NCBI GenBank assembly: GCA_020049855.1
Contig: JAGVLJ010000044.1
Coordinates: 5,900 to 69,899, forward strand
DNA: 64,000 bases
Origin: Bacteroidia bacterium
Lineage (GTDB): Bacteria > Bacteroidota > Bacteroidia > UKL13-3
Reading direction: 5' to 3'
Shown: one piece after another, positions 3,919 to 21,720 of the stretch
Layout of the letters: every line of letters begins with the position of its first letter
Numbering within the stretch: the stretch's first letter is position 1
Translations under genes and position numbers: made by a program
The notes under the pieces: generated by a model
Databases searched by the model: none
Told to the model about the DNA's origin: nothing
The model's input: the letters and a program-made list of their open reading frames with translations, nothing else

Positions 3919-4494
3919 TTATTTTGCAGGAGGTAGCAATACCTGATCAATGATGTGAATTATACCATTGGATGCAGGAACGCTGGCCACAATATGAGCT
4001 CCATTAATGGTAGGTTTGCCATCCACCATTTTTATTTCTGTATTTTTCAAATTCACCATATTCAGTACACGTCCATCGGTTAGATCCTCTGGTTTAAGTG
4101 TACCCACAAAAACATGGTATTCCAAAATATTGCGTAAATCATTTTTAGCTTCGGGTTTTAATAAACCTTCTACGGTGCCGGCTGGTAATTTATCAAAAGC
4201 GGCATTTACGGGCGCAAAAACGGTAAATGGGCCTGCATTGGCCAGCACATCTACATATTCGGCTGCTTTTACTGCTGCTACCAACGTACTGTGGTCTTTT
4301 GAACCAATCGCAACTTTTACAATATCTTTTGCTGATACATCATCCTGAACAGCTGACTGACCTACCTGATTTTCTGCCGTGGCAGTTTCAGCAGTTTTGG
4401 TAGCATCGGCTTCATTTGTTTCGCTTCCACATGAAGAAACGGCAATAGTTCCTGTTAAAAACAGGGCGGCTGTGAGTATTTTTAGTGTTTTCAT
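3919..4494 (-). CDS. fasciclin (FAS1) domain lipoprotein
   Basis: 191 aa; signal peptide with lipobox Cys (VSSCGS) and a C-terminal FAS1-like region (ILEYHV..., GIIHIIDQVLLP). Confidence 0.7.
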   Translation of the reverse strand: MKTLKILTAALFLTGTIAVSSCGSETNEADATKTAETATAENQVGQSAVQDDVSAKDIVKVAIGSKDHSTLVAAVKAAEYVDVLANAGPFTVFAPVNAAFDKLPAGTVEGLLKPEAKNDLRNILEYHVFVGTLKPEDLTDGRVLNMVNLKNTEIKMVDGKPTINGAHIVASVPASNGIIHIIDQVLLPPAK

Positions 4495-4516
4495 TTTACG
4501 GTGGCTTTATTAAGTT

Positions 4517-4524
4517 CAAAGTTA
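4517..4524 (-). promoter_or_regulatory. candidate Bacteroidetes -7 promoter element (TAnnTTTG) for the fasciclin gene
   Basis: Minus strand reads TAACTTTG about 28 nt upstream of the ATG at 4494. This matches the Bacteroidetes sigma-A -7 consensus TAnnTTTG. Confidence 0.3.
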
Positions 4525-5235
4525 CTTGCGGGTGGTTTAATAAAATTGATGCAAGTCAATAAAAAAGCAGATTTTTCTCAATATAATGTATTCAGGGGTA
4601 CTTCTAAAGAATGTAATTTTATTGAAATCAAGTTAGGTGCACACTGGTAATGCTCTCGAATTTAAATTTCCTTTTATGCTTTAATCTCATCCTTAATTGA
4701 GTTTGTATCCTGTAATATGGTTCTGTATAAAAAAAGGAGCCATATTTGTTCAGTATGGCGTCTTCACTCGGAAACAATCATTTCCTGATTTTATCACCAG
4801 TGGGGTATAAGAAGGTATTTGGTGTGTGGAATTTAGCACAATAAACTGGTAAAGGTAAAACGGACATCTAACTTTGCGCTATGGGGCTTATTAAAATAAA
4901 CTTTTGCGCTACTTGTGGCTGTTCTCAAATCAAATTGCTTCAGAATATATTGGTTGGTCACTGTACTAGCGGTTGAGAAGCGAATTGTGTTTTTGAATTT
5001 TATGCCAATTACTTGTCAGTATTTTAGTTTGCTCTTTGAGGTACGGAATATTGTTTTTGCTTCTTCTTGTTTTTCTATCCATTTTGTTAACTAATATCTA
5101 TTTTATATAACATTTTTTGGCAACGAATTTTTTTGTTCGCAAATAGTTTTTGGAAATATTATTCAAGATGGAGTGCCTATCAAGTGAAATGATAGCTAGT
5201 GACCCCACGACACAATGTGGAGCTGCTTCTCCTTG

Positions 5236-6003
5236 CTAAAGATTTTTACGGTTAAAAACTTTTATTGAATACAACAAAGGAGCGATAATCCAGATAAACA
5301 TGATGCAACAGGTATAAAATATACCCATTGAATTGCCAAAAAAAGATTTAAACAGGGCTCCGGTGTAACCCATTAAGGCGGAAATGTCTAATTTTAGCAT
5401 AATTATGATACGACCCAAATCAATAGGATTAAGGGCAACTATGGGAATCATAGCTTGTTCAAGCGGATAATCACTGAAGGTAAAAAGAAGGGCAAGCATT
5501 AAGGCATCGTAAATAATGGAAAAATAAAACCAAATCATAAGGGCGATGCCTATTCCTTTTGCCTTATCGCGTGTAATTACTGATGAGAGAAAAGCCAGTG
5601 AAATAAATACCAGAGTAAGGAGGATTCCTGATAGAATAAGCACAAATCCTGTGGCTGTGGCATCAAAAAGAATTATGGGAATACCGATTCCGATAAAAAA
5701 GGCGAAGGAAAGGGAAAGGGCAACGCCTATGTATTCTCCCAGCAAGATGGTGCTTCGTTTTAATGGTTGGGCAACCAGTAATTCTATAAATTCGTACGAA
5801 TTAAAAAAATACGTTGTAGCAAACACAATGCTGATAAGCGGAACCATAATCATCACAATGCTCATTAAACTTATAATGGCTTTTGAGGGGTCTTCTTCCA
5901 TATTGAATAAAGTAGAAGCAATAAGGAACAGGAAAAGAGTATAAGCAATAAGTACGCGGTTGCGTACAATATCATAAATTACGTATTTGGTTACTTTAAT
6001 CAT
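5236..6003 (-). CDS. nosY: ABC-2 type transporter permease NosY
   Basis: 255 aa polytopic membrane protein immediately downstream of nosF in the nos cluster. Overlaps nosF by 8 nt. Confidence 0.75.
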   Translation of the reverse strand: MIKVTKYVIYDIVRNRVLIAYTLFLFLIASTLFNMEEDPSKAIISLMSIVMIMVPLISIVFATTYFFNSYEFIELLVAQPLKRSTILLGEYIGVALSLSFAFFIGIGIPIILFDATATGFVLILSGILLTLVFISLAFLSSVITRDKAKGIGIALMIWFYFSIIYDALMLALLFTFSDYPLEQAMIPIVALNPIDLGRIIIMLKLDISALMGYTGALFKSFFGNSMGIFYTCCIMFIWIIAPLLYSIKVFNRKNL

Positions 6004-6709
6004 TGATTTCTGATTTCATAAGTTTGGCAATGGCCTTGCCTAAACGTTCTTCTCCAGTTTCCTCTTTTATTTCTTTGATTGTTTTATCAAAGGCTATCTC
6101 GCCATCCATCATGTACACAATTCGGTCAGCCAGTTCATCTACTTCACTCATAATATGCGAGGTGATAATGACACATTTGCCTTTTGATTTTGCTTCTAAA
6201 ATATGTTGTTTCAAAATTTCGGAGGCCAGAGGGTCTAAGCCTGCAGTTGGCTCATCTAACACTAATATATCTGGATTGAATAAAAAGGCAAGCGCAGCAC
6301 TTACCTTCTGTCTGGTTCCGCCTGAAAGGGTGCGCATGGTTTTATTAAATAAAGAAGGTATTTTGTACGAATTCAATACCGATTCATCAGGCTTTATGTC
6401 ACTTTTTCTTAGGTCGCGCATCATGGAGAATACCTGACCAATTTTCATATTATCGGGGTAGCGGCCAATTTGAGGCATATATCCAATTTGTGACCTGTAT
6501 TGCCAATCGCCAGAAATTGATTTACCATTCAGGATTATTTCTCCCGAATCCGGAATAATCATGCCCAGAATTGATTTAATTAATGTAGTTTTACCCGATC
6601 CGTTTGGCCCTATTACCGATACCACTTCGCCCTTATGAAAACAAATACTTACCCCTTTTAAAACGCGGAGTTTGCCGAATTTTTTTTGCAGAGCTTTTAC
6701 TTCAATCAT
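5996..6709 (-). CDS. nosF: ABC transporter ATP-binding protein NosF
   Basis: 237 aa; Walker A GPNGSGKTT, signature LSGGTRQK, Walker B ILVLDEPTAGLD. Overlaps nosD by 4 nt. Confidence 0.85.
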   Translation of the reverse strand: MIEVKALQKKFGKLRVLKGVSICFHKGEVVSVIGPNGSGKTTLIKSILGMIIPDSGEIILNGKSISGDWQYRSQIGYMPQIGRYPDNMKIGQVFSMMRDLRKSDIKPDESVLNSYKIPSLFNKTMRTLSGGTRQKVSAALAFLFNPDILVLDEPTAGLDPLASEILKQHILEAKSKGKCVIITSHIMSEVDELADRIVYMMDGEIAFDKTIKEIKEETGEERLGKAIAKLMKSEIND

Positions 6710-7944
6710 CGTGTTGGGGATTTCATTAAAGGGGAGTCGTCTTTTAGTTGGTCAGGTGTAAGGGAGGGTATATTTTTTTCAGCTTTATCCAGCAAGTCTA
6801 CCGCAAAACTGCGTAGCAGCATTACCGCATAAGGAATTTGTTCTATAATGGATGCATACAAACTTACAGGACGATAGGGAATATCGCCTACTCCGTCTCT
6901 GTCTAGGTCGTATCCGGTGTACTTATCCCAGTAATTGTGTTTAAAATAATTCAACGAAATTGTTCCGTTTGTTGAAACATCAAAAGTATTACCATTGAAT
7001 TTATTTCGAATAAAAGAATCCATTTCGCAATTGGCAAGTAGTTTTAAAGCCCATCCGTTGTTTTGAAAAGTGTTTCCCACTACCTGAATGCGCGAAGATC
7101 CTTCCAGATACAAAGCTGTTGTGTTATTTAAAAAAGTATTTCCGGTGATATAACTGTTCCCAATATCTTTCAGTAAAACTCCATAGGAGGAACTGCCCCA
7201 ATTATCGGCAAAAATATTTCCTTCCATTCGTATTCCCTTAGTGTACATAACGGCTACTCCTGTACCATTATTTCTGAAAATATTGTTTGTGTATGTATCG
7301 TTGTCTGAAAACATAAAGTGAAGACCATACCTGAAATTCTTTTCACTGATGTTTTGCGAAATATGGCAAAACCGGGCAAATTCAAAGTAAATTCCGTCAC
7401 GGTGACCACTGATTTTATTTTTTCTAATGGTGACAAAATTGCATTGCCATAAATGAATTCCGTTGCCTGAACGTGCGTCATCAGGGGCACTACCTATAAG
7501 GGTATTGTTTTCTATAAGGGAAGAATCAATAGCCGAAAGGTGAAAACCAAAGTAGGTATTGATGAGGATGTTGTTTTTTAAAGTAAGGTGTCGGGCTTTC
7601 ATAGCTTGTATGCCGGCATAATCTGTCATGCTGGCTCTTGCCGAGTTTTTAATAGTGATACCTTCAATGGTTACGTGAGATGCGGTTATGGTTATGCCGA
7701 AATCTTTCATTTGCACATCAAGCACTGGCTCGTTTTCTCCTTTAAATACAATTGATTTATTGATGTGAAGGTTTTTGACAATATAGATGCCTTTGTGCAA
7801 CATGACGGTATCTCCATTATGTGCAGATATAATTGCAGGTTGTGGATGTTTAAAGCGAAAGGCAGCACCTACATCAATGGTTTTTGCCCTTAAGAGATGG
7901 CTGCTTAAAAGTACAATTAAAAATAGAAAAGGCAATCGGGGCAT
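6706..7944 (-). CDS. nosD: periplasmic copper-binding protein NosD (right-handed beta-helix)
   Basis: 412 aa; signal peptide and repeated parallel beta-helix segments (GIxxxxS/NNxI). Lies between nosL and nosF. Confidence 0.8.
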   Translation of the reverse strand: MPRLPFLFLIVLLSSHLLRAKTIDVGAAFRFKHPQPAIISAHNGDTVMLHKGIYIVKNLHINKSIVFKGENEPVLDVQMKDFGITITASHVTIEGITIKNSARASMTDYAGIQAMKARHLTLKNNILINTYFGFHLSAIDSSLIENNTLIGSAPDDARSGNGIHLWQCNFVTIRKNKISGHRDGIYFEFARFCHISQNISEKNFRYGLHFMFSDNDTYTNNIFRNNGTGVAVMYTKGIRMEGNIFADNWGSSSYGVLLKDIGNSYITGNTFLNNTTALYLEGSSRIQVVGNTFQNNGWALKLLANCEMDSFIRNKFNGNTFDVSTNGTISLNYFKHNYWDKYTGYDLDRDGVGDIPYRPVSLYASIIEQIPYAVMLLRSFAVDLLDKAEKNIPSLTPDQLKDDSPLMKSPTR

Positions 7945-7956
7945 GCGAGAGAGGAG

Positions 7957-8400
7957 TTAATGAATAACGGCAAAAATAGAGTCCCAGTGAATGATGTCTC
8001 CTCCTGTATTTTTCTGTATTTTTCTAGCTTCTTCTTCTTTGGCAAATGAGGCTAAATTTCCACCCATTGGGCTTTGTATGTTTTTTCCATGAAGATAGAA
8101 TGCGCTTTTTGCATCAATCAAAGTGGAGGGGTTGGCATAATCTGTAACTACCATAAACCTGTAAATATTTTCGGGAGTTGTATTTTTTTTAAGGTAGTTT
8201 ATCAGGCATTCGTCCGAGTCAAAGAGAAAAGTTCTTCCTTTCGAGGTTACAAGTTGCGCCCCGAATTTTGTATCCATAATGGTCATTTTACAATGTGTAC
8301 ACTGATCTTTTCCGTAGTTAATCGGGACGGGTTTTACGGAGCAGGAAGAAAAGAATATGGAGAGAAGAAGTACAGCTATTACTGAAAGTATTTGTTTCAT
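7957..8400 (-). CDS. nosL: copper chaperone lipoprotein NosL
   Basis: 147 aa; lipoprotein signal (FFSSCSV); NosL-like size and position in the nos cluster. Confidence 0.65.
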   Translation of the reverse strand: MKQILSVIAVLLLSIFFSSCSVKPVPINYGKDQCTHCKMTIMDTKFGAQLVTSKGRTFLFDSDECLINYLKKNTTPENIYRFMVVTDYANPSTLIDAKSAFYLHGKNIQSPMGGNLASFAKEEEARKIQKNTGGDIIHWDSIFAVIH

Positions 8401-8404
8401 AAGG

Positions 8405-8983
8405 TCATGTTTTTTTACTGAATAAAAAGTGTTCTATCCATAGAACTCCTGAAGAAATAAGGGCTGGAATAATAATAAAATATCCTCCGGTATCGGGTAG
8501 GGAGCCTGCAAGAAAATTAAGTAGCTCTTTATAGCCGATAAGGGGCGGCTGATAAGTCATTCCTGGTATTTTTATGGCAGCAGTAGGGTCAAGGTTATGC
8601 CCGTATTTATATTCCCAAAGCCAAAAATCAACGGAAGCAACGGCAGCAACAAGTATAAGAAAAGCGACCCATGCGAATAATGCTTTTCGGGTATTGAGGG
8701 CCGCAGCTAAAACTCCCCATATTATCATTATGCCCAGAAGTATCGGGAGTATTTTAAATTCGGGGAAATCTTCCACGTGAATCGTTTGCATTCCAATATA
8801 ATGGTTTAGGTTGTTAATCGAATTGATATCACCTTTGATACTATTTACCCAAATTTCCATTCTTAGCCCTTCAGGATATTGCGGAGCTTCCAGTTCAATT
8901 TTCCAAACGGAGGTAAAATAGGCTACGCCCATACTTAAGGCACATAGCAAAATAATAAGCCGGGAAGATGTTTTTAATTTCAT
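8405..8983 (-). CDS. small polytopic membrane protein, NosB-like (clade II nos cluster component)
   Basis: 192 aa with about 4 transmembrane segments directly downstream of nosZ. This position corresponds to nosB in clade II clusters. Confidence 0.4.
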   Translation of the reverse strand: MKLKTSSRLIILLCALSMGVAYFTSVWKIELEAPQYPEGLRMEIWVNSIKGDINSINNLNHYIGMQTIHVEDFPEFKILPILLGIMIIWGVLAAALNTRKALFAWVAFLILVAAVASVDFWLWEYKYGHNLDPTAAIKIPGMTYQPPLIGYKELLNFLAGSLPDTGGYFIIIPALISSGVLWIEHFLFSKKT

Positions 8984-9074
8984 GATGTGAGCAAATAAGG
9001 TGAAGCCGAACAGGATACAAAAGTAAAGGAAAAAAGAAAGGGGAGGAAATTCCTCCCCTGACTTTCAGTATTAG

Positions 9075-11102
9075 CTATTTAGCCGCTGCCGTATTACCGG
9101 TTGAGAAGCTCAGAGGAGTAGAAGATCCCGCGGGAGATACCCTGATATATCCTTGCATTTCCTGATGAAGAGCCGAGCAGAAGTCGGTGCAATACATTGG
9201 AAATACTCCGGGGGCTTTAGGTGTCCATTTCAGAGTTTGTGTTTCGCCCGGCATAACCAGCAATTCCGAATTACCGGCACCTTTTACTGCAAATCCGTGT
9301 GGTACATCCCAGTCTTGTTCCAGATTGGTTACGTGAAAATAAACATCATCACCTACTTTAACACCTTCAATATTGTCGGGAGTAAAGTGTGAACGGATGG
9401 CAGTAATGTAAACATGCACTTCGTTTCCTTTACGTACTACCTTTGCATCTTTTTCATTGCCGGCAAAGTAAGGATGTTTGTTTTCTTCCAGCTTATACAC
9501 CTTGCGTTGGTTTTTGGTCACCAAATCAGCCTGAATCATTTGTGCGTAGTGTGGTTCGCCAATGGTAGGGAAGTCAAGCAACAATTTCATTTTTTCTCCG
9601 GAGATATCAATTAACTGGGCTGACTGGCAAAGTTCTGGTCCCGTAGGCAGGTAACGGTCTTTGGTGATTTTATTTAAAGCTACCAGGTATTTTCCGTAAG
9701 GTTGTTTCGAGTCGCCCTGTGCCACACAAAGGTGACCAATGGAATAATAGGTAGGAATGCGGTCAACCACTTCACGTGTTTCTACGTTCCATTTTACAAC
9801 TTCAGACGAAACGAAGAAGGAAGTATACGCAAAACCGTTCTGGTCAAATTCAGTATGTAAGGGGCCTAAACCCGGTTTTTGTACTTCACCGGCCAGTACT
9901 GCATCATATTTTAGAACATTGATACCATCAAACTCGCCTTCAAATTGCTTGGCTTCAATAGCAGCAATCATTTTTTTGTAGGAGAACACAGGAATCATAG
10001 CGGCCAGTTTTCCTGAAGCTACAATGTATTCACCTGTTGGGCTTACATCGCATCCGTGAGGCGATTTAGGGCAAGGCATGTAGTAGCAAATATCTTTCAG
10101 GGCGCGTGCATCCAAAGTCATCACTTCTTTCATAAGTTCGGAGGTAGCCATGTGTTTTGATTCATCATACACATTATGGTAGTAGTTGGCAGGTTTTTTT
10201 ACACCTTTACCCTGTGCCAGGTATTCTTCGGCTTTTTTCCAGTTCACAGCCATAATAAAGTCCTTGTCTTTTTGCGAAGCATTTACTTCAAGCAGGGTAT
10301 TGGCTTGTTCGGAATTATAACTTGAGAAAAACAACCAGCCATGGGAAACACCTTTTCCGGCACGTGCCAGGTCATAATCAATGGCCGGAACATCCAATTG
10401 AAATTCCAGATTCATGTGTCCGCTTTCTTTATTTACCTTGATAAAGTTCACCACACCTTTAAAATTTTGTTTATATGTATTGATGGCTACTTCAGTTTCA
10501 TCAGGAGGAACACTGAAGCGGGAAGCACCTACCACATACTCGGTATTTTCAGTACAATAAGGTGAAGCATGATTTCCCCCTGTATTAGGCAGTTCAATTA
10601 TTTCGGTCGTTTTAAAAGTGGTAAGATCAATGCGAGCAATACGGGGAGTGTTATTGGCATTAATAAACAGCCATCTTCCGTCATCATTGCCGGCAGTTTT
10701 AGAAAGTACCGGGTGGTGACTGTCATCCCATGGAATAAAACCTTTGGTAGTATTCAGCATTGGCTTTGTTTCTTCCGAATAGCCCCATGCATTTTCGGGA
10801 TTTACAGAAAATACTGGTATTTGCCGAAGAAGTCTTCCTGATGGTATACCATATACGGCTACCTGTCCACTAAATCCTCCCGAAGCAAACATATATACTT
10901 CATCCAACTTACCAGGTGCTACATATACTTTGCTTGCTGCATCACCTTGTACCACATTGGTTGCTTTTTTTGGCTTGCAACTATAAAAGCCTGCAATCAC
11001 TAAAACCATAAAGCCGGTTCGGACTGCTGTTTTAACTATTATTTTCATAATTGAATAATTAAGTAAGTTATTATAAAGATCTTGCTTATTTGGCTCCGTC
11101 AT
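9075..11102 (-). CDS. nosZ: nitrous-oxide reductase NosZ (Sec-type, clade II)
   Basis: 675 aa; 7-bladed propeller region plus C-terminal CuA cupredoxin motif (H...C..C...H..M: HVTNLEQ...CTDFCSALHQEM). The signal peptide has no twin-arginine motif. An alternative start at MKIIVKT (about 11048) gives a lipoprotein-like signal. Confidence 0.9.
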   Translation of the reverse strand: MTEPNKQDLYNNLLNYSIMKIIVKTAVRTGFMVLVIAGFYSCKPKKATNVVQGDAASKVYVAPGKLDEVYMFASGGFSGQVAVYGIPSGRLLRQIPVFSVNPENAWGYSEETKPMLNTTKGFIPWDDSHHPVLSKTAGNDDGRWLFINANNTPRIARIDLTTFKTTEIIELPNTGGNHASPYCTENTEYVVGASRFSVPPDETEVAINTYKQNFKGVVNFIKVNKESGHMNLEFQLDVPAIDYDLARAGKGVSHGWLFFSSYNSEQANTLLEVNASQKDKDFIMAVNWKKAEEYLAQGKGVKKPANYYHNVYDESKHMATSELMKEVMTLDARALKDICYYMPCPKSPHGCDVSPTGEYIVASGKLAAMIPVFSYKKMIAAIEAKQFEGEFDGINVLKYDAVLAGEVQKPGLGPLHTEFDQNGFAYTSFFVSSEVVKWNVETREVVDRIPTYYSIGHLCVAQGDSKQPYGKYLVALNKITKDRYLPTGPELCQSAQLIDISGEKMKLLLDFPTIGEPHYAQMIQADLVTKNQRKVYKLEENKHPYFAGNEKDAKVVRKGNEVHVYITAIRSHFTPDNIEGVKVGDDVYFHVTNLEQDWDVPHGFAVKGAGNSELLVMPGETQTLKWTPKAPGVFPMYCTDFCSALHQEMQGYIRVSPAGSSTPLSFSTGNTAAAK

Positions 11103-11559
11103 TTTGACGCAGGTAATTCAGAATGGATAATGCCTCATCTTCTGCCACATTCTGGTTGGTCATCTGGGTAAGGTGTTCGGCCAGCAACGCTTGAGCAGTA
11201 GGGTCTTTTTGTGTCATTTCTACCGGATTGGTAATCATGTTCAAAATCCACTGTGGTTTTCTGCGTTCTGTTACGCCTTTAAGACCCGGACCAACTATTT
11301 TGTCGCCAGTTAATTTGTGGCAAGCTGAACATTTGGCTTCAAATAAAGTCTTGCCTTTTTCGGCTAAGGCAGCATCAAAAGGGGCAACTTCTTTTCCGGC
11401 AAAGTTTCCAATCCCTTCTCCGTTGTCGGCAGGGGTGGCAGGTGTGGTGGGCGATTGCTCAGCAGGTTTGTCTGATGAGCCACAATTACTAAATACGAAA
11501 GCTAATGCTAATACTGCAGTTACTGATACTGCTTTTCTGTAAATTTTTGTCATTATCAA
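11086..11559 (-). CDS. mono-heme c-type cytochrome lipoprotein (putative electron donor to NosZ)
   Basis: 157 aa; lipobox (FSNCGS), single CSACH heme-binding motif and downstream Met (ITNPVEM). Overlaps the nosZ start. Confidence 0.75.
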   Translation of the reverse strand: MIMTKIYRKAVSVTAVLALAFVFSNCGSSDKPAEQSPTTPATPADNGEGIGNFAGKEVAPFDAALAEKGKTLFEAKCSACHKLTGDKIVGPGLKGVTERRKPQWILNMITNPVEMTQKDPTAQALLAEHLTQMTNQNVAEDEALSILNYLRQNDGAK

Positions 11560-11628: not shown

Positions 11629-11642
11629 TTGATATGAATCAG
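11629..11642. promoter_or_regulatory. FNR/CRP-family box (TTGAT-N4-ATCAg) in the divergent cytochrome c-nosZ / crp-fnr promoter region
   Basis: TTGATatgaATCAG matches 9 of 10 positions of the FNR consensus TTGAT-N4-ATCAA. It is centred about 76 bp upstream of the cytochrome c ATG and about 67 bp upstream of the regulator ATG. Confidence 0.45.
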
Positions 11643-11702
11643 AGTTGAGTGTGATTTTTATCAGTTTTTTTTGTTTTGGGATAAAACCCTTAGATTTACC
11701 GA

Positions 11703-12407
11703 ATGGCATTGAATAATAAACTGGATTGTACAAATTGCCAAACCCTCGGGCTTTCTGTGTTTTGCACCTTAACCCGTGAAGAAGTTGAGCAATTGAACAA
11801 TTATAAATCTTCATTTCACGTTAAAAAGGGGCAGTTAATCTTTTATGAAGAAAGTGAGCCCCCGGGCTTATATTGTGTACATCGCGGGAAGGTAAAGGTA
11901 TTTAAAACAACAAATGAAGGGAATATTCAAATATTGAGGCTGGCGAAAGACGGAGATATTATTGGTTATCGTTCTTTATTGGCCGGGGAGCAATACCGTG
12001 CTGCAGCCGAAGCGATTGAAGACTCGCAAATATGCCTAATTCCCAAACATTATATTTTTGAATTGCTGAATAAAAACATTCATTTATCGCTTAAAATAAT
12101 GGAAAATTTTGCCCGCGAATTGAAAACGGCAGAAAAGAAGAATGTTGATTTATTGCATAAAACAAGCAAGGAACGTCTTGCCGAGTCGTTGTTATTGCTT
12201 AGAGATACATTTGGGGTAAATGAACGAGGTTTTATCAATGTAGTTCTTAACAGGGAAGATATTGCCAATATTACCGGAATGGCCACCGAAACAGTGGTAA
12301 GATGTCTTCGAGAGTGGAATGAGGTTGGGGTAATTGATCTTGATAAAAAACTTATTAAAATTACAAATACTAAACAGTTGCTGGATATTGCCAACTTGAA
12401 GGACTGA
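11703..12407 (+). CDS. Crp/Fnr family transcriptional regulator (FNR-like; N-terminal Cys cluster)
   Basis: 234 aa; cNMP-binding-like beta-roll plus C-terminal HTH (NREDIANITGMATETVVRCLRE). Cys9/Cys12/Cys21 and Cys111 mimic the FNR [4Fe-4S] ligand pattern. Confidence 0.8.
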   Translation: MALNNKLDCTNCQTLGLSVFCTLTREEVEQLNNYKSSFHVKKGQLIFYEESEPPGLYCVHRGKVKVFKTTNEGNIQILRLAKDGDIIGYRSLLAGEQYRAAAEAIEDSQICLIPKHYIFELLNKNIHLSLKIMENFARELKTAEKKNVDLLHKTSKERLAESLLLLRDTFGVNERGFINVVLNREDIANITGMATETVVRCLREWNEVGVIDLDKKLIKITNTKQLLDIANLKD

Positions 12408-12417
12408 TTTCTATCAG
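12404..12417. promoter_or_regulatory. FNR-like box (cTGAT-N4-ATCAg) upstream of norC
   Basis: CTGATttctATCAG overlaps the regulator's stop codon and is centred about 67 bp upstream of the norC ATG. Confidence 0.4.
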
Positions 12418-12477: not shown

Positions 12478-12900
12478 ATGAGATTTGTAGTTAAAATTAG
12501 TATCCTGCTGGTTTTGGTGTGTTCTTTTGCGATGTACAGCGTTCACTTATACACCGATACTAAATTATTAAAAAAATCAACTCGGCTCACCGATGCAGCT
12601 TTTGAGGGGAAAATGATTTGGCAACAAAATAATTGTCAGTCGTGTCATCAGTTTTACGGACTGGGCGGATATCTTGGACCAGATCTCACCAACGTGTACT
12701 CAACAAAGGATAAAGGTACCGGGTATATTGGAATTATGGTGCAAAACGGAAGTATTACCATGCCGGCATACAAAATGAGTAAAACAGAAATTGAAAAGGT
12801 TACGGAGTTTTTGCGTTGTATGGATGAAACCGGCAAAGCTGATCCAAGAACTTTTAAAGCAACCGAGACCGGTAATATTACGCGTGAAGATGAACAATAA
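12478..12900 (+). CDS. norC: nitric-oxide reductase small subunit NorC-like (membrane-anchored mono-heme cytochrome c)
   Basis: 140 aa; N-terminal TM anchor. The segment MIWQQNNCQSCHQFYGLGGYLGPDLTNVYS closely resembles the conserved NorC heme-binding region, with a downstream Met (ITMPAY). Confidence 0.75.
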   Translation: MRFVVKISILLVLVCSFAMYSVHLYTDTKLLKKSTRLTDAAFEGKMIWQQNNCQSCHQFYGLGGYLGPDLTNVYSTKDKGTGYIGIMVQNGSITMPAYKMSKTEIEKVTEFLRCMDETGKADPRTFKATETGNITREDEQ

Positions 12901-14266
12901 ATCAACATTCTTTTTTGCCGATCGCTTATTTTTAGCTACTGCACTTTTAATGCTAATTGGAGTAGTTATTTATGGCTCATTGGCATCGGTTTACTACTTA
13001 GCTCCAGGCTTCTTGAAAAATTACCTTGGTTTCTCGCAGTTACGACCGTTGCATGTTACATCGGTTGTGTTCTGGATTCTGATGGCGGCAAGTGGAGGGG
13101 TCTATCACTCATTTCGAGAAGTAAAAATAAATCGCCTCATTCACACTCTTGCTCTTGCACATTACACCATATGGTTTGTAGCCCTGGTGGCTATTTTTAT
13201 GTCTTATTATAACGGTATTTTTGGCGGAAGGGAGTATTGGGAATTTCCGCCTAAGTATGCAGGGTTTATTGCTGCAGGCTGGTTCTTTTTTTTAGTTAGT
13301 TACCTGATTGTATATAGGTCATTGAAGCAATGGAGTGTTTATCATTGGATGTGGCTTACCGGAATTGTTTGCTTTCTGTTTACTTTTTTTGAAAATTACC
13401 TATGGATTTTTCCTTTCGTAAATAGGGATGCCGTTAAAGATCTTACTATTCAATGGAAGTCGAACGGATCTTTGGTAGGTTCATGGAATCAATTGGTGTA
13501 TGGGCTTGCATTTTACCTGATGGAAAAAATTTCGGGAGATAAACAAACTGCACGCTCCGGAATTTCATTTGCTATGTATTTTCTGGGGTTGTTTAATTTA
13601 ATGTTTAACTGGGGGCATCATATCTATACCTTACCCACGGCTTCCTACGTTAGGATCATTTCTTACGCGGTAAGCATGACTGAATGGATTATTTTCCTGC
13701 GGATTATTTTTTTATGGAAAAAAACCAATGCAGTCGCTGGAAAACCTGCTATGCGAATTTCTTTCGATTTTTTAAATTCATCAGATCACTGGATATTGTT
13801 GAACTTGTTTCTCGCATTACTCATGTCAATCCCGGCAATTAATATTTATACGCACGGCACACATGTTACGGTTGCTCATGCTATGGGAACCACTATAGGA
13901 ATTAATACCCTTATTCTTTTAGGTGTATCAGCTGAGATTATGAAGGGATCTTGCAATGAAACCAATTCGTATCCGGTTTTGAAAAGATGGCTAACCGTTA
14001 TGAATATTAGTTTAGGCGCAATGCTCCTCTCCCTATTAGTAGTTGGAGTGTTAAAAGGGGTTTGGCAAATGAATCCCAATCAGGGCTCATTTCAGCAAAT
14101 GATGCTGGGTTTTAGGCCTTATTTTATCCTCATGTTTTGTTCCGGAATTGGGTTGCTTGTTGCAGTAGCAGCAATAAGTGTAGTGATATTGCGAAGTTTT
14201 ATTTTGTGCTATACCAGAAAAAAGATGCCCGGCTATGGGTTTGGTTCTTTAATGAAAGAAGGATGA
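12890..14266 (+). CDS. norB: heme-copper-oxidase-family membrane protein, NorB-like NO reductase large subunit (NnrS-like not excluded)
   Basis: About 458 aa and 12 predicted TM helices; HH pair (GHHIY), H-x2-H-x4-H (HGTHVTVAH) and an N-terminal His. The preferred start ATG at 12890 overlaps the norC stop. The ORF track's 12791 start would overlap norC by 110 nt. Confidence 0.65.
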   Translation: MNNKSTFFFADRLFLATALLMLIGVVIYGSLASVYYLAPGFLKNYLGFSQLRPLHVTSVVFWILMAASGGVYHSFREVKINRLIHTLALAHYTIWFVALVAIFMSYYNGIFGGREYWEFPPKYAGFIAAGWFFFLVSYLIVYRSLKQWSVYHWMWLTGIVCFLFTFFENYLWIFPFVNRDAVKDLTIQWKSNGSLVGSWNQLVYGLAFYLMEKISGDKQTARSGISFAMYFLGLFNLMFNWGHHIYTLPTASYVRIISYAVSMTEWIIFLRIIFLWKKTNAVAGKPAMRISFDFLNSSDHWILLNLFLALLMSIPAINIYTHGTHVTVAHAMGTTIGINTLILLGVSAEIMKGSCNETNSYPVLKRWLTVMNISLGAMLLSLLVVGVLKGVWQMNPNQGSFQQMMLGFRPYFILMFCSGIGLLVAVAAISVVILRSFILCYTRKKMPGYGFGSLMKEG

Positions 14267-14321: not shown

Positions 14322-16118
14322 ATGAGTATTTCCCGCGTTCACCCCTTTCATATTCCGGTTATGGGTCTTTCATTTACTGTTGATACGCCTGTTAAGGTAG
14401 CTCGTTTCGGCATTTCTTCAGTAGTCTCTGTTATAGAAGATGAATTGGTAGAAAAAATGCGCAAGTATTATTGCGAGTCGCTTCAGCTGCCATACAAGCA
14501 TATTACCAAAACAGAACATGATTACCGGGCTAAGCGTATAACCGAATACCTAAATTTGCTCGATTTGATTGTAAAGAATCAATTGGCTATTCTAAAAAAT
14601 GAGCGGTTTGAAGAGGGGGCCGAAATTGTAAAATATTTCGAGTTGCTTCCTGAAAATGCTCCGTTAAAGCAAGTGTATCTTAAAATGAAACTTTCGTCAG
14701 GCTATGTAAAGCAAAAACTACAGGAGGAATTGCGTGCCGGTATTGTATCTGGGGATATTGATGTGAATATAATGACGAAGGTGGATAAAACAAACTACAC
14801 TCCTACCGGAGAACCTCTTTCGGTTGAGTTCAACGATGCCCTAGCAGCTTTACGTGGATTTGCTCAAAGTAACGTATCATCTTCTGTTGTATTTTCGGCT
14901 GGGTTAAATCCTAGGCTATACAGTTATTGCGAAACGTTCAATGATTTTTTCCCCGACAAAAACGGAGCCGTTAAGAAAAGAATTACCATCAAAGTTAGTG
15001 ATTATCGTTCAGCCCTTATACAGGGAAAATTCCTTGCAAAAAAAGGTCTTTGGGTTTCTGAATTTAGAATTGAATCAGGATTGAACTGCGGGGGGCATGC
15101 GTTCGCTACCGATGGGCTATTACTTGGGCCGGTTATGGAAGAGTTTAAAGCGAAGCGGGAGGAGTTGACAAATACGCTGTTTGAATTATGCAACCAAACA
15201 CTTAAAGAAAAGGGGCGTGATGCGTTTCCTTATGTTCCAAAACTTAGTATTACGGTTCAGGGCGGAGTAGGAACCTTTAACGAGCAACAATTTTTTCTCA
15301 GCTATTACAAAATGGATAGCATTGGCTGGGGCAGCCCGTTTTTACTGGTGCCTGAAGTTACTAATGTAGATTATGCTACCCTTAGTGAATTGGCCACTGC
15401 CAAACCCGATGATTATTATTTGAGCGATGCCTCTCCACTGGGTGTGCCATTTAATAATTTCAAAAAAAGTAGTTCAGAGGTGCAGCGTAAAGCACGTATC
15501 GAAAAACACCGAGCAGGTAGCCCGTGTTATTTAAAATTTCTTTCCTTTAATACAGAATTTACAGAAAAACCCATTTGTGTAGCTTCGCGGGAATATCAGA
15601 ATTTAAAAATTAAGCAACTTAAAACAAGCGGTGCTGATGAAAAGACCGTACAGCGTGAAATTGATTTGGTAACGGAGAAAGATTGTTTGTGTGAGGGGTT
15701 AAGCACATCAGTATTTATTGAAAAACATATTCCACACCCTCATAAACTTGCTGCTGTTACCATTTGCCCGGGTCCTAATCTTGCTTATTTTTCCGGGGTA
15801 TTCACGTTGGTGCAGATGGCCGGACATATTTATGGAAGAGGAAATTTACTCAACAGTGTGCCACGGTCCCATGTTTTTGTAAATGAATTGCGACTTTATG
15901 TAGATTACCTGAAAAGGGAAATTAGTAAAAACATTCTGGCACTTAGCAGCAAGAAAGAAGAATATTTTAATACATTTCGCAGCAACCTGCTTTCGGGTAT
16001 CAACTATTATATTAGCCTTCTTGATAAAATGCAGTTAGAAAAGGAATCATTAATCAACCAAATGAAAACCGAATTTGCCGAACTTGAACAACAGTTGGCT
16101 GGAATGATCACAGCTTAA
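14322..16118 (+). CDS. conserved hypothetical 598-aa soluble protein in the norCB operon (possible FMN/TIM-barrel-like motifs)
   Basis: Long uninterrupted ORF 55 bp after norB and 9 bp before the queD-like gene. Weak motif similarity only (VARFGIS, GLNCGGHAF, QGGVGT); no confident family assignment. Confidence 0.5.
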   Translation: MSISRVHPFHIPVMGLSFTVDTPVKVARFGISSVVSVIEDELVEKMRKYYCESLQLPYKHITKTEHDYRAKRITEYLNLLDLIVKNQLAILKNERFEEGAEIVKYFELLPENAPLKQVYLKMKLSSGYVKQKLQEELRAGIVSGDIDVNIMTKVDKTNYTPTGEPLSVEFNDALAALRGFAQSNVSSSVVFSAGLNPRLYSYCETFNDFFPDKNGAVKKRITIKVSDYRSALIQGKFLAKKGLWVSEFRIESGLNCGGHAFATDGLLLGPVMEEFKAKREELTNTLFELCNQTLKEKGRDAFPYVPKLSITVQGGVGTFNEQQFFLSYYKMDSIGWGSPFLLVPEVTNVDYATLSELATAKPDDYYLSDASPLGVPFNNFKKSSSEVQRKARIEKHRAGSPCYLKFLSFNTEFTEKPICVASREYQNLKIKQLKTSGADEKTVQREIDLVTEKDCLCEGLSTSVFIEKHIPHPHKLAAVTICPGPNLAYFSGVFTLVQMAGHIYGRGNLLNSVPRSHVFVNELRLYVDYLKREISKNILALSSKKEEYFNTFRSNLLSGINYYISLLDKMQLEKESLINQMKTEFAELEQQLAGMITA

Positions 16119-18802: not shown

Positions 18803-19786
18803 TCAGGTAAATTCCATCATTTTTTTTATGGGCTGGTAGGCTTTATGAATTAATTCAGTGCTTAAATTCACCTCAAAATTATCCATTTTATCTACTCCTA
18901 TATGTTCCAGGATTTCCAGTGTTTTCAGCATGGATATTTTTTTCATGTGCGGGCATTTAATGCAGGGAGTTATGAATTCTTTTTCCTGATACATTGTTTT
19001 AAGAGTTGAACCCAAATCACACTCAGAGGCAAGTATAAAGCTGGTACACGAACTTTCTCCAACGTAACGAATAATATCATTAGTGCTGCCAAGTACACCG
19101 CCTGCGTTGGTTAGTGAATCCGATACCGTGGTATCCGGAACTTCCCAGTGTAATAGAAACTCCGAATTGGGGTATTGCATACGCAGCCCCTTGGCCATAT
19201 CGGAAGTAAATTGCTCGTGAACTTCGCATTTTCCATTCCATAGTATAAGGTCTTTTCCGGTTTCTTCTTTTACCTGCTTTGCTAAATTTTGTCCCATGTA
19301 TAAATCAGGAACAAAAATTATTTCTGGTGAATCTATCGAGCGGATGATGGCTAATGCATTTCTTGAGGTGCAACATACATCACAGGCGGCTTTAGTCTCT
19401 GCATAGGTATTGATATAAGCTACCACCGGAGTGTCGGGATATTTTGCCTTTAAGGCATTCACATCTGCTGCTGTAATGCTTGATGCCAGTGAACATCCAG
19501 CTTCCTTGTCAGGTATATAAACATGTTTATCCGGGCTTAAAATTTTGGCTGTTTCTGCCATAAAATAAACTCCGCAAAATATTATATGATCTGCTGTTGT
19601 TTTTGCTGCTTCCACACTTAGGCCTAATGAATCTCCCACAAAGTCTGCAATGCCCCCGGCCGTTTCCTTCAATTGTAAATCGGGGCTCATGTAGTAATGA
19701 GAAAGTATAACAGCATTCTTTTCTTTCTTTAGTTTGTTGATTCGGAGAATTAGTTCTTTTCCCGATATTATTGGTTCTTGTATCAT
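18803..19786 (-). CDS. nadA: quinolinate synthase
   Basis: 327 aa; NadA family (ILSHYYM..., conserved Cys ligands). 1 bp gap to nadB. Confidence 0.9.
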   Translation of the reverse strand: MIQEPIISGKELILRINKLKKEKNAVILSHYYMSPDLQLKETAGGIADFVGDSLGLSVEAAKTTADHIIFCGVYFMAETAKILSPDKHVYIPDKEAGCSLASSITAADVNALKAKYPDTPVVAYINTYAETKAACDVCCTSRNALAIIRSIDSPEIIFVPDLYMGQNLAKQVKEETGKDLILWNGKCEVHEQFTSDMAKGLRMQYPNSEFLLHWEVPDTTVSDSLTNAGGVLGSTNDIIRYVGESSCTSFILASECDLGSTLKTMYQEKEFITPCIKCPHMKKISMLKTLEILEHIGVDKMDNFEVNLSTELIHKAYQPIKKMMEFT

Positions 19787-19843
19787 GCGTGCAAAGATCT
19801 CCGCAATGGCAAATCAATACCATGATCTTAATCATTAATGAAG

Positions 19844-19857
19844 TTGATGATTATCAA
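19844..19857. promoter_or_regulatory. perfect FNR consensus box TTGAT-N4-ATCAA in the divergent nadA / peroxidase-pair promoter region
   Basis: TTGATgattATCAA matches 10 of 10. It is centred about 56 bp upstream of the 19907 ATG and about 64 bp upstream of the nadA ATG. Confidence 0.5.
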
Positions 19858-19906: not shown

Positions 19907-20644
19907 ATGAGGGGTTTAATAATTTATTGGGGTATCGGGTTGATACTATTTTCTTTTTTCTCGTGTCAAAGAAATAATCGAGATACGCCAAAACCTAAAG
20001 TGATTTCACCTATAAAGGTGGATATGAGTTTTAATGTGAACGGAGTTCCTTTACGGGTTGATACTATTCAATTTCGCAACCTTTCGGGAAATAGTTTTAG
20101 TATCACTCGTCTTGACTTCTATATTTCAAATATCGAAATTACTTCTGTTACCGGGGCTATTTATAAATCAACAAAATTTTTTTATGTAAGTGCTCGTGAC
20201 ACATCAACGTATCATTTTACGGTAAATGGTCTGCCACTCACAGGAATTACTTCATTTCGCTGCTGTATTGGCTTATCAGCTTCGCAAAATATCAGTAATT
20301 CATTAACACCCACACAGGCTAATTTGAATATGGCGTGGCCGGATAATATGGGGGGAGGATACCATTTTCTAAAACTCGAGGGGCATTACATTGCATCAAA
20401 TCTTCAGGTTTATGGTTATGCCATGCATTTAGGCAAAAATCAAAATCTGGTAGAGATTACTCTCTCAACTCCACTATACGAATCGCAAGTTTCAAATGGA
20501 ATAAAATTAGCAATGGATGTTGCCAAATGGTATAATGCGCCTGCTAAAATTGATTTGAACAATACCAATTACACTATGGGTATTGATAGCCTTATGGCTA
20601 AACTTTCGCAAAATGGAAAAAATGTTTTAAGCATAACAAATTAA
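19907..20644 (+). CDS. periplasmic lipoprotein partnered with a di-heme peroxidase (MbnP-like?)
   Basis: 245 aa; lipoprotein signal (FFSCQ). 3-bp gap to the di-heme CCP gene, the arrangement seen in MbnP-MbnH pairs. Family assignment is by context only. Confidence 0.5.
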   Translation: MRGLIIYWGIGLILFSFFSCQRNNRDTPKPKVISPIKVDMSFNVNGVPLRVDTIQFRNLSGNSFSITRLDFYISNIEITSVTGAIYKSTKFFYVSARDTSTYHFTVNGLPLTGITSFRCCIGLSASQNISNSLTPTQANLNMAWPDNMGGGYHFLKLEGHYIASNLQVYGYAMHLGKNQNLVEITLSTPLYESQVSNGIKLAMDVAKWYNAPAKIDLNNTNYTMGIDSLMAKLSQNGKNVLSITN

Positions 20645-20647
20645 GAT

Positions 20648-21691
20648 ATGAGATACATTGCTATACTTCTGTTTGTTGTTTTGATGATTAAATGCAGGCA
20701 AAAGGACAATATTGCAAATACGGACTACGGTGTTGATTATCCTACCCCGTATAATTTTCAGGTTCCTCAGGGTTTTCCTCAGCCCTACTTTTCATCTGAC
20801 AACCCGCTGACAAATGAAGGAGTGGATTTGGGTAAGCGACTTTATTCCGATGCAATTCTTTCATCAAACGGACTCAGTTGTTCGTCATGCCACAGGCGCA
20901 GTAAATCATTCTCCTCTCCTTATTATATTACACCTACTGGCGATAAAATCAGCATTCCTCCGCATATAAATCTTGTTTTTAATCCCGACTATAACTGGAA
21001 CGGCTCGATAACTAAACTTGAATTGCTGCCGATGGGTGATTTTGAACCGCAATTTTTTAATACCAATGCCGATACCCTTTTTTACAGGCTATCGCATCAC
21101 CCTCTTTATCCGCAGCTTTTTTTCAAAGCATTTGGAATAACAAATTTTTATACACTAAGCTACGAAGAGTTAAAAATGACTATTTGCAAAGCACTTGTTC
21201 AGTATATACGTACCATGGTTTCTGCCAATTCAAAACTCGATCGGTATCAACTTAAAGGAGGGGCACTCACTCAAGAAGAACATGATGGGATGTATGTGTT
21301 TTTCTCAGAGCGGGGAGATTGTTTTCATTGCCATGGCTATCCGCTTTTTAGTGATAACCTATACCACAATAACGGACTCAATAATCAGTTTATAGGACAG
21401 GATGCTGGTAGAAATCTAATCACTCATGCTGCTAGCGATTTGGGCATGTTCAGTACACCCACACTTCGCAATATTGAATTAACAGCTCCTTACATGCATG
21501 ATGGGCGCTATACTACTTTGGAAGAGGTTGTGGAGTTTTATAATTCGGGCGTAAAGTTTTCCCGCACCATCGACCCTATTATGACCAAACCGGGTAAGGA
21601 AAGCGGACTTCAACTTACTGCTTATGAAAAGTTGAGTCTGGTGGCTTTTCTTAAGACGTTAACCGATACTTCTTTTATTTCAGCTAAATAA
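20648..21691 (+). CDS. di-heme cytochrome c peroxidase (CCP/MauG/MbnH family)
   Basis: 347 aa; two heme c motifs (CSSCH, CFHCH) at the spacing typical of bacterial di-heme CCP/MauG. Confidence 0.85.
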   Translation: MRYIAILLFVVLMIKCRQKDNIANTDYGVDYPTPYNFQVPQGFPQPYFSSDNPLTNEGVDLGKRLYSDAILSSNGLSCSSCHRRSKSFSSPYYITPTGDKISIPPHINLVFNPDYNWNGSITKLELLPMGDFEPQFFNTNADTLFYRLSHHPLYPQLFFKAFGITNFYTLSYEELKMTICKALVQYIRTMVSANSKLDRYQLKGGALTQEEHDGMYVFFSERGDCFHCHGYPLFSDNLYHNNGLNNQFIGQDAGRNLITHAASDLGMFSTPTLRNIELTAPYMHDGRYTTLEEVVEFYNSGVKFSRTIDPIMTKPGKESGLQLTAYEKLSLVAFLKTLTDTSFISAK

Positions 21692-21693
21692 AA

Positions 21694-21720
21694 AAGCCCG
21701 CAGTTGCGGAGCTTTTTTAT
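21694..21720 (+). terminator. Rho-independent terminator after the peroxidase gene
   Basis: AAAAAGCCCGCAGTTGCGGAGCTTTTTTAT: stem CCGCA/TGCGG followed by a T-run. Confidence 0.55.

Follow-up and report, generated by a model that had tools for sequence, protein, structure and literature searches.

A divergent Bacteroidota-type MbnP/MbnH-like gene pair, with predicted copper-site residues and FNR-type boxes, near denitrification genes of a Bacteroidia bacterium

A 64,000-nucleotide stretch of the genome of a Bacteroidia bacterium (lineage UKL13-3; GenBank assembly GCA_020049855.1, contig JAGVLJ010000044.1, positions 5,900 to 69,899; hereafter the window) carries two adjacent genes for a divergent MbnP/MbnH pair, in which an MbnP-fold lipoprotein is partnered by a di-heme enzyme. 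The lipoprotein is homologous to MbnP of methanotrophs, shares its fold and keeps residues that are predicted to form the copper site; the two genes are found side by side in nearly all species compared, and they stand behind operator motifs that are shared with neighboring nos and nor-like genes. These features point to a protein that would carry a kynurenine-copper site and may serve denitrification enzymes. An earlier note on this DNA, made from the sequence alone, had proposed that a 245-amino-acid (aa) lipoprotein is followed after 3 bp by a di-heme CCP/MauG-family enzyme and that the pair resembles MbnP-MbnH. The open reading frames (ORFs), a lipobox, two CxxCH motifs and a Pfam CCP_MauG match bear out the first part of that description. 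As for the resemblance, the note had named three results that would speak against it, and none of them was found: the lipoprotein has MbnP homology, the conserved Trp is present, and the enzyme stands apart from classical CcpA.

Results

A probable two-gene operon

The two ORFs are separated by 3 bases, and a hairpin lies immediately 3' of the second stop codon:

19907..20644, plus strand: MbnP-like lipoprotein gene, 245 aa (ORF; Pfam MbnP match, AlphaFold2 model, Foldseek, hhalign)
20648..21691, plus strand: MbnH-like di-heme MauG-type enzyme gene, 347 aa (ORF; NCBIfam, Pfam and PDB matches)
21697..21720, no strand assigned: G+C-rich hairpin between an A run and a T run (minus-strand terminator scan; plus-strand T run read from the sequence)

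Because this hairpin, flanked by its A and T runs, directly follows the mbnH-like stop codon, the genes are read as a two-gene operon, and the hairpin itself resembles a two-way terminator, which suggests that it ends that operon. A sigma-70 promoter scan was uninformative, as Bacteroidota promoters are outside its coverage. The public annotation of this copy consists only of "hypothetical protein" and "cytochrome c peroxidase". The NCBI gene call of the lipoprotein starts at Met40 (206 aa, record P0001) and so loses the signal peptide and lipobox, while the JGI call is the 245-aa form. The longer form has a lipoprotein-type signal at its N terminus (MRGLIIYWGIGLILFSFFSC) and is favored over the shorter one because its lipobox cysteine, Cys20, is invariant in 40 of 40 homologues.

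The lipoprotein belongs to the MbnP family

The Pfam MbnP model (PF20243) matched the lipoprotein at 90.9 bits against a cutoff of 27 (E 1.2e-25); the match covers residues 36-223, equivalent to profile positions 4-187 of 189, and the domain is present in all 120 homologues among the matches listed. When PDB sequences were searched with the 245-aa protein, or with a profile of 40 sequences, 7L6G, the structure of MbnP from Methylosinus trichosporium, was not found, and the GlcNAc 2-epimerases that came up were chance-level matches only. The link to the structurally characterized protein therefore needed a comparison of folds and a profile-profile alignment. An AlphaFold2 model built on the 40-sequence alignment (predicted local distance difference test score 92; predicted template modeling score 0.83) was compared with the PDB by Foldseek, and the only matches at E <= 0.001 were the six chains of 7L6G (E 8e-7, probability 1.00, template modeling scores 0.54/0.47). 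The 7L6G sequence was recovered by way of the MbnP encoded in the mbn operon of Methylocystis parvus, after which classical MbnPs were collected; hhalign aligned the Bacteroidota subfamily with these classical proteins over 208 columns with a probability of 96.5% and an E value of 7.7e-10. Two double-length relatives, P0249 (499 aa) and P0364 (520 aa), contain two MbnP-like stretches each, which suggests tandem fusions.

Predicted copper-site residues

The copper site of MbnP from Methylosinus trichosporium OB3b consists of one His, one Met, water, and Kyn174, a kynurenine derived by the action of MbnH from the Trp that opens a WxW motif (PMC11951088). We identified this residue, Trp174, from that work and by our own numbering of the 7L6G sequence, in which it lies within G-M-A-W-N-W. 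In the hhalign alignment, M142-A143-W144 of the window protein stand opposite Met172-Ala173-Trp174, and H174 (in YAMHLG) stands opposite His207 (in WMVHVG). A MAFFT alignment of all 61 sequences, made separately from hhalign, gave the same matches and added a further one, M230 with Met269. All four residues, M142, W144, H174 and M230, are invariant in the Bacteroidota and classical subfamilies (W144 in 40 of 40), and they are the predicted copper-site residues of the MbnP-like protein, with W144 as the putative kynurenine precursor. Also invariant in the Bacteroidota subfamily is a GGGYHF motif that includes His153, a position at which the classical proteins have Arg or Lys in the MAFFT alignment.

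The partner is a MauG-type di-heme enzyme

The MbnH-like enzyme has two CxxCH motifs, CSSCH at residues 78-82 and CFHCH at residues 225-229, and matches Pfam CCP_MauG. Among NCBIfam models its best match was MbnH (TIGR04039) at 197.6 bits, with MauG at 107 bits. The same ranking was obtained with PDB structures: the best was 6E1C (131 bits, E 5.9e-37), followed by the best canonical peroxidase at 87 bits, BthA (6NX0) at 48 bits and MauG at about 40 bits. Structure 6E1C is a methanotroph MbnH: its match with the MbnH encoded in the mbn operon of Methylocystis parvus has an E value of 1.5e-201 and about 80% identity. Alignments with canonical peroxidases stop at the ligand Met (Met275 in 1EB7, Pa CCP; Met258 in 1IQC, Ne CCP), which stands opposite Tyr298 of the window enzyme. 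A joint alignment shows Tyr at this position not only in the two methanotroph MbnHs but also in 78 of 78 Bacteroidota homologues; the inter-heme Trp117 is likewise kept in 78 of 78. His-Tyr ligation sets MauG-type enzymes apart from H2O2-scavenging peroxidases (PMC11892367, PMC6405878) and goes with poor peroxidase activity (PMC11892367). By its ligand residues, the MbnH-like enzyme is thus predicted to be of the MauG type rather than a canonical CcpA with a His-Met electron-transfer heme.

FNR-type boxes and a candidate regulator

The earlier note had placed a perfect FNR box upstream of the pair, and it is indeed present. Further motifs of the same type, the first of them not mentioned in that note, and a gene for a regulator of the same family lie in the region between the nos operon and the pair:

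19844-19857, no strand assigned: perfect FNR-type box TTGATGATTATCAA, the sole perfect TTGAT-N4-ATCAA in the 64-kb window
19822-19835, no strand assigned: second Crp/Fnr-type palindrome ATGATCTTAATCAT, core TGAT-N4-ATCA at 19823-19834, in the nadA/mbnP intergenic region
11630..11663, no strand assigned: two TGAT-N4-ATCA cores 22 bases apart (11630 and 11652), in the gap that separates the minus-strand nos operon from the plus-strand fnr-like gene
12405..12416, no strand assigned: TGAT-N4-ATCA core upstream of the NorC-like gene
11703..12407, plus strand: Crp/Fnr-family regulator gene (Pfam cNMP_binding and HTH_Crp_2)

The first base of the perfect box is 63 bases before the mbnP-like ATG (19907), and its center is about 56 bases from that ATG and about 64 from the nadA start; the second palindrome is 22 bases upstream of it. 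By itself the lone perfect box is weak evidence, because 21 of 100 shuffled sequences contained at least one. Of the shorter TGAT-N4-ATCA core there are five copies in the window where 1.45 are expected; none of 100 shuffles reached five, and all five cores are confined to three intergenic regions (nos/fnr, upstream of the NorC-like gene, and nadA/mbnP). The core pairs at 11630-11663 and 19823-19856 have an identical 22-base spacing and both lie in divergent intergenic regions, and the spacing suggests two regulator dimers on one face of the helix. The two closest relatives, L001 and L002, retain a one-mismatch version of the perfect box. Across related loci, a core was found within 200 nucleotides (nt) upstream of mbnP in 19 of 77, against rates of 1.6% for 200-nt windows in general and 0.7% for shuffles.

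The product of the regulator gene has cysteines arranged as in oxygen-sensing FNR, namely an N-terminal C-x2-C-x8-C (C9, C12 and C21) and a central C111, and its best NCBIfam model is Fnr (101 bits, under the cutoff of that model). It is a candidate for the regulator that acts on these boxes. Given the shared cores, their enrichment in relatives and the FNR-like regulator, we infer, on good grounds, that the pair would be co-regulated at low oxygen with the nos and nor-like genes, and the pair probably belongs to an FNR-type microoxic/denitrification regulon. In species that have no FNR-type box, the gene directly upstream of the pair is often one for a regulator of the Rrf2 family, weakly similar to NsrR (e.g., L071:9370-9807 and L010:16904-17632); an Rrf2 gene beside the pair together with a nearby RIC/YtfE gene suggests an alternative, nitric oxide (NO)-responsive control of the operon.

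Genes around the pair in the window

The pair is preceded in the window by genes for nitrous oxide (N2O) and NO metabolism and for NAD synthesis:

5236-11559, minus strand: clade-II-style nos cluster (cytochrome c, NosZ, 192-aa ORF, NosL, NosD, NosF, NosY)
9075-11102, minus strand: NosZ, a member of the nos cluster
12896-14266 (ORF listed from 12791): NorB-like heme-copper-oxidase relative, distant from cNOR NorB (30.9 bits to 4XYD)
18803..19786, minus strand: nadA (quinolinate synthase; Pfam NadA, E 2e-94), then nadB

Past the nos cluster the gene order is the Crp/Fnr regulator, NorC-like, NorB-like, a 598-aa ORF, PTPS, a small lipoprotein gene, nadB and nadA. Both nad genes are read away from the pair, so the box-bearing intergenic region is common to nadA and the mbnP-like gene. 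The earlier note had the pair within a few kb of a NosZ system with NosL and NosD; that system is there, but about 8.3 kb separate the nos operon from the start of the pair, which is farther than was claimed.

The active site of the NorB-like protein is unusual, as it is without one metal-ligand His and both cNOR Glu residues: relative to Pseudomonas NorB, His207 is replaced by Asn, Glu211 by Val and Glu215 by Asn. When the window protein is compared with 23 homologues (24 sequences in all), the residues found there are N/L/Y, V and N, respectively, and the HH pair and heme histidines are kept. The protein may fall in the cNOR-related family termed "N2O red" (PMC11214002). The 598-aa ORF behind the NorCB-like genes (14322-16118) has no Pfam or NCBIfam match; homologues of it are present at 10 of the 80 related loci, and at three of these they adjoin the MbnPH pair directly, and its product could be an accessory of the NorB-like oxidase. 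The 192-aa ORF between nosZ and nosL (8405-8983), also without a Pfam or NCBIfam match, keeps its position in 8 related nos clusters. Downstream of the nos cluster, a fasciclin-domain gene (gene and boxes within 3919-4631) has two one-mismatch FNR-type boxes, at 4546 and 4618, before its start, and in 6 loci a fasciclin gene occurs close to the pair or to nos genes.

Distribution and conserved gene neighborhood

A profile search with the MbnP-like family returned 5267 cluster representatives at E <= 1e-3, of which 496 were at E <= 1e-30, and a scan of one genome per species identified the subfamily in 239 species. By their record titles these species are all Bacteroidota except for one "uncultured bacterium" and three Bifidobacterium/Bifidobacteriaceae (L002, L014 and L042). 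The L002 locus is syntenic with the window, its MbnP gene being 76% identical, and the taxonomic labels of the three metagenome bins look wrong.

Neighborhoods at the 80 best loci (one per species) were counted from the genes in the flanks retrieved, which reached at most 10 kb to either side. MbnP has an adjoining MbnH homologue in 79 of the 80 species. At least one N-oxide- or NO-related gene was found at 51 loci, and a core one (NorCB-like, Nos or RIC) at 39. Most common among the denitrification genes were those for NorB-like and NorC-like proteins (25 loci each), which are directly adjacent to the pair in 11 and occur in several orientations. Genes for a Crp/Fnr regulator homologue (19 loci), the iron-sulfur repair protein RIC (RIC/YtfE; 16), an Rrf2 regulator (15, directly adjacent in 4), hemerythrin-like proteins (9) and globin-like proteins (8) also recurred, as did nadB (15) and nadA (14). 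In a Pfam census of the 142 immediate neighbors, NadA was counted 9 times, COX1 (NorB-like) and Phosphodiest 6 times each, and Pirin, Radical_SAM and Rrf2 5 times each.

In about nine species (L009, L017, L022, L032, L043, L058, L063, L065 and L075) nadA/nadB lie directly beside the pair; three arrangements occur, in which they are divergent from the pair, precede it on the same strand, or follow it. This adjacency might relate to the O2- and NO-sensitive Fe-S cluster of NadA, to H2O2 production by NadB, or to simple co-regulation. A gene of the tryptophanase/tyrosine-phenol-lyase family was present in the flanks of 22 of the 80 loci and directly adjacent in two; one example, L058:732-2117, scored 675 bits to the NCBIfam tryptophanase subfamily model.

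Discussion

Relation to known systems

The closest characterized system is MbnP/MbnH of Methylosinus trichosporium OB3b (7L6G and 6E1C; TIGR04052/TIGR04039, the "metallo-mystery pair"; GenProp0940). The window pair shares with it the adjacency of the genes, the MbnP fold, the conserved Met, Trp (kynurenine precursor), His and second Met, and a di-heme partner that has the Tyr ligand and inter-heme Trp and for which MbnH is the best match. It differs in that its lipoprotein is shorter (245 aa versus about 325 aa), has a lipoprotein anchor and includes the additional GGGYHF motif, and in that no methanobactin genes accompany it, the context being one of denitrification and NO response. The family as such is already catalogued: the subfamily is covered by Pfam, and some of its members carry the NCBI name "MbnP family protein". 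What distinguishes the subfamily from characterized MbnP is its anchoring, cysteines, motif and gene context.

Other systems that couple a di-heme enzyme to a modified Trp are less close. MauG shares with the window enzyme a His-Tyr second heme and an inter-heme Trp and likewise has a partner, pre-methylamine dehydrogenase, whose Trp is oxidized by MauG (PMC6405878, PMC11951088); the window enzyme, however, scores far lower with the MauG model than with the MbnH model (107 versus 197.6 bits), there are no mau genes, and its partner is an MbnP-fold lipoprotein. In methanotrophs, CorA/CorB and MopE also present a di-heme peroxidase gene beside a protein with a Trp-derived kynurenine-copper site (PMC3621798, PMC11951088), but CorA and MopE have a different fold and copper sites that use two His; in the Bacteroidota subfamily a second His might come from His153. 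Neither 2VOV nor 4BZ4 was among the significant fold matches of the MbnP-like model, and a relationship to CorA/MopE was rejected because the fold does not match. Canonical CcpA (1IQC and 1EB7) has in common with the window enzyme the CCP_MauG fold family, two c-type hemes and the inter-heme Trp, and an FNR-type box lies upstream in the window; CcpA differs in its ligand Met, where the window enzyme has Tyr298, in scoring below MbnH, and in the MbnP-like partner that accompanies the Bacteroidota enzymes.

As to gene context, MbnPH-like genes are known from methanobactin operons (PMC3621798) and, in Proteobacteria, from copper-regulated operons with TonB-dependent transporters, ScoC, PCuAC, YcnI and CopC (PMC9426467). 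The Bacteroidota pairs resemble the latter in lying outside methanobactin operons, but the commonest families among their 142 immediate neighbors are instead NadA, COX1, Phosphodiest, Pirin, Radical_SAM and Rrf2.

A probable kynurenine-copper pair for denitrification

We favor the explanation that a single operon made up of these genes encodes a divergent MbnP/MbnH pair of Bacteroidota type, in which the MauG-type enzyme, with its His/Tyr-ligated second heme, would use H2O2 to oxidize Trp144 of the lipoprotein to kynurenine. This kynurenine would join His174 and one of two conserved Met residues (M142 or M230) to complete a Cu(I) site in the periplasm. An FNR-type regulator would switch the operon on along with the nos and nor-like genes, so that production of the copper protein would coincide with low oxygen and with the building of denitrification enzymes, and the lipoprotein would most likely hold or pass on periplasmic copper for those enzymes. 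Taken as a whole, from the kynurenine-copper site through FNR switching to copper for denitrification enzymes, we regard this account as probable, if some way from secure. Within it, a supply of copper to NosZ is plausible from the gene context. That context favors a link to denitrification or NO in general, and a link to the NorB-like oxidase is more frequent in it than one to NosZ.

Several observations weigh against this account. At the level of the proteins, the lipoprotein is only about 10% identical to 7L6G, and no NCBIfam model, including TIGR04052 (the "four-Cys motif protein" model of classical MbnP), matched it at E <= 1, just as the enzyme falls short of the curated cutoff of TIGR04039 (197.6 bits versus 362.85), so both members of the pair are under the TIGRFAM cutoffs. 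The second Trp of the WxW motif is missing from the lipoprotein, which reads M-A-W-P-D/E with an invariant Pro145 and Asp or Glu at position 146 (W-P-D in the window protein); the invariant cysteines of classical MbnP, including its four-Cys motif, have no counterpart, Cys20 being the sole invariant Cys of the MbnP-like protein. At the level of gene context, nos genes are nearby in only 8-14 of the 80 loci, and TonB receptors make up only 3 of the 142 immediate neighbors. The 25 commonest families among these neighbors include no copper chaperone, and neither CopC/CopD nor Sco nor PCuAC, and de novo clustering of the flanks gave no copper-homeostasis family among the clusters present in at least 5 loci. 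Control by FNR is deduced from motifs only. Finally, kynurenine formation requires H2O2 or O2, which sits awkwardly with induction at low oxygen, although microoxic conditions would reconcile the need for an oxidant with low-oxygen expression.

Some of the same gene context would also fit a pair that handles NO and nitrosative stress, or matures the atypical NorB-like oxidase, rather than supplying copper to NosZ; the MauG-type enzyme might, for example, act on the oxidase, or on some other client in the periplasm, to modify or maintain it, and the MbnP-like protein would then serve as an adaptor or donate metal. The NorC/NorB-like genes, as the commonest denitrification neighbors and in varied orientations, argue for this alternative, as do the missing metal-ligand His and Glu residues of the NorB-like protein and the recurrence of RIC/YtfE, Rrf2, hemerythrin-like and globin-like genes. 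Against it, 55 of the 80 loci have no NorB-like gene nearby, and the copper-site residues are the most conserved features of the lipoprotein, which argues for a metal site in MbnP itself. We also know of no precedent for MbnPH acting on a heme-copper oxidase. On balance we consider this alternative unlikely but a serious rival.

Quite improbable, in our estimate, is that the enzyme is a plain periplasmic cytochrome c peroxidase under FNR that scavenges H2O2, with the lipoprotein as an unrelated or structural neighbor. Public records do name it a cytochrome c peroxidase, it is a member of Pfam CCP_MauG, and canonical peroxidases of the CCP_MauG family are commonly under FNR/Anr control. Variants of BthA, moreover, retain dye-linked peroxidase activity (PMC6405878). 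The Tyr in place of Met at the second-heme ligand, a MauG-type feature, and the obligate pairing with an MbnP-like partner gene nevertheless make plain scavenging unlikely, and MbnH scores above any canonical peroxidase. We give similarly little weight to the idea that the pair guards against copper, with a kynurenine-Cu(I) protein sequestering periplasmic Cu(I) that is more toxic at low oxygen and with NO: residue conservation speaks for it just as for the copper-supply account, and low-oxygen induction, inferred from the boxes, and the recurrent iron-sulfur-related neighbors NadA, RIC and Rrf2 agree with it, but the neighbor surveys turned up no copper-export or copper-sensing genes, and one copper per protein would be a small buffer.

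Significance

Even for the MbnPH pairs of methanotrophs a biological role has yet to be settled, and the preferred explanation, copper handling for denitrification enzymes, concerns a large uncharacterized Bacteroidota subfamily, spread over the 239 species genomes and 496 cluster representatives noted above. A literature search for MbnH or MbnP with denitrification found nothing relevant, which is no proof of absence, the neighborhood analysis of the primary MbnP paper lying outside that search. N2O reductase is copper-dependent and is the sole known biological sink of the greenhouse gas N2O. The placement of the pair by genes for NO and N2O reduction, behind FNR-type boxes, therefore offers a testable link between a kynurenine-copper protein and denitrification; were that link to fail, the finding would remain a useful correction of annotation. 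More tentatively, and with considerable doubt, Bacteroidota-type MbnPH may be a dedicated accessory of denitrification and NO response, in which an FNR-controlled kynurenine-copper lipoprotein feeds NosZ, or feeds or matures the two-His NorB-like oxidase. If this were true, kynurenine-copper proteins would be a factor in the microbial turnover of NO and N2O.

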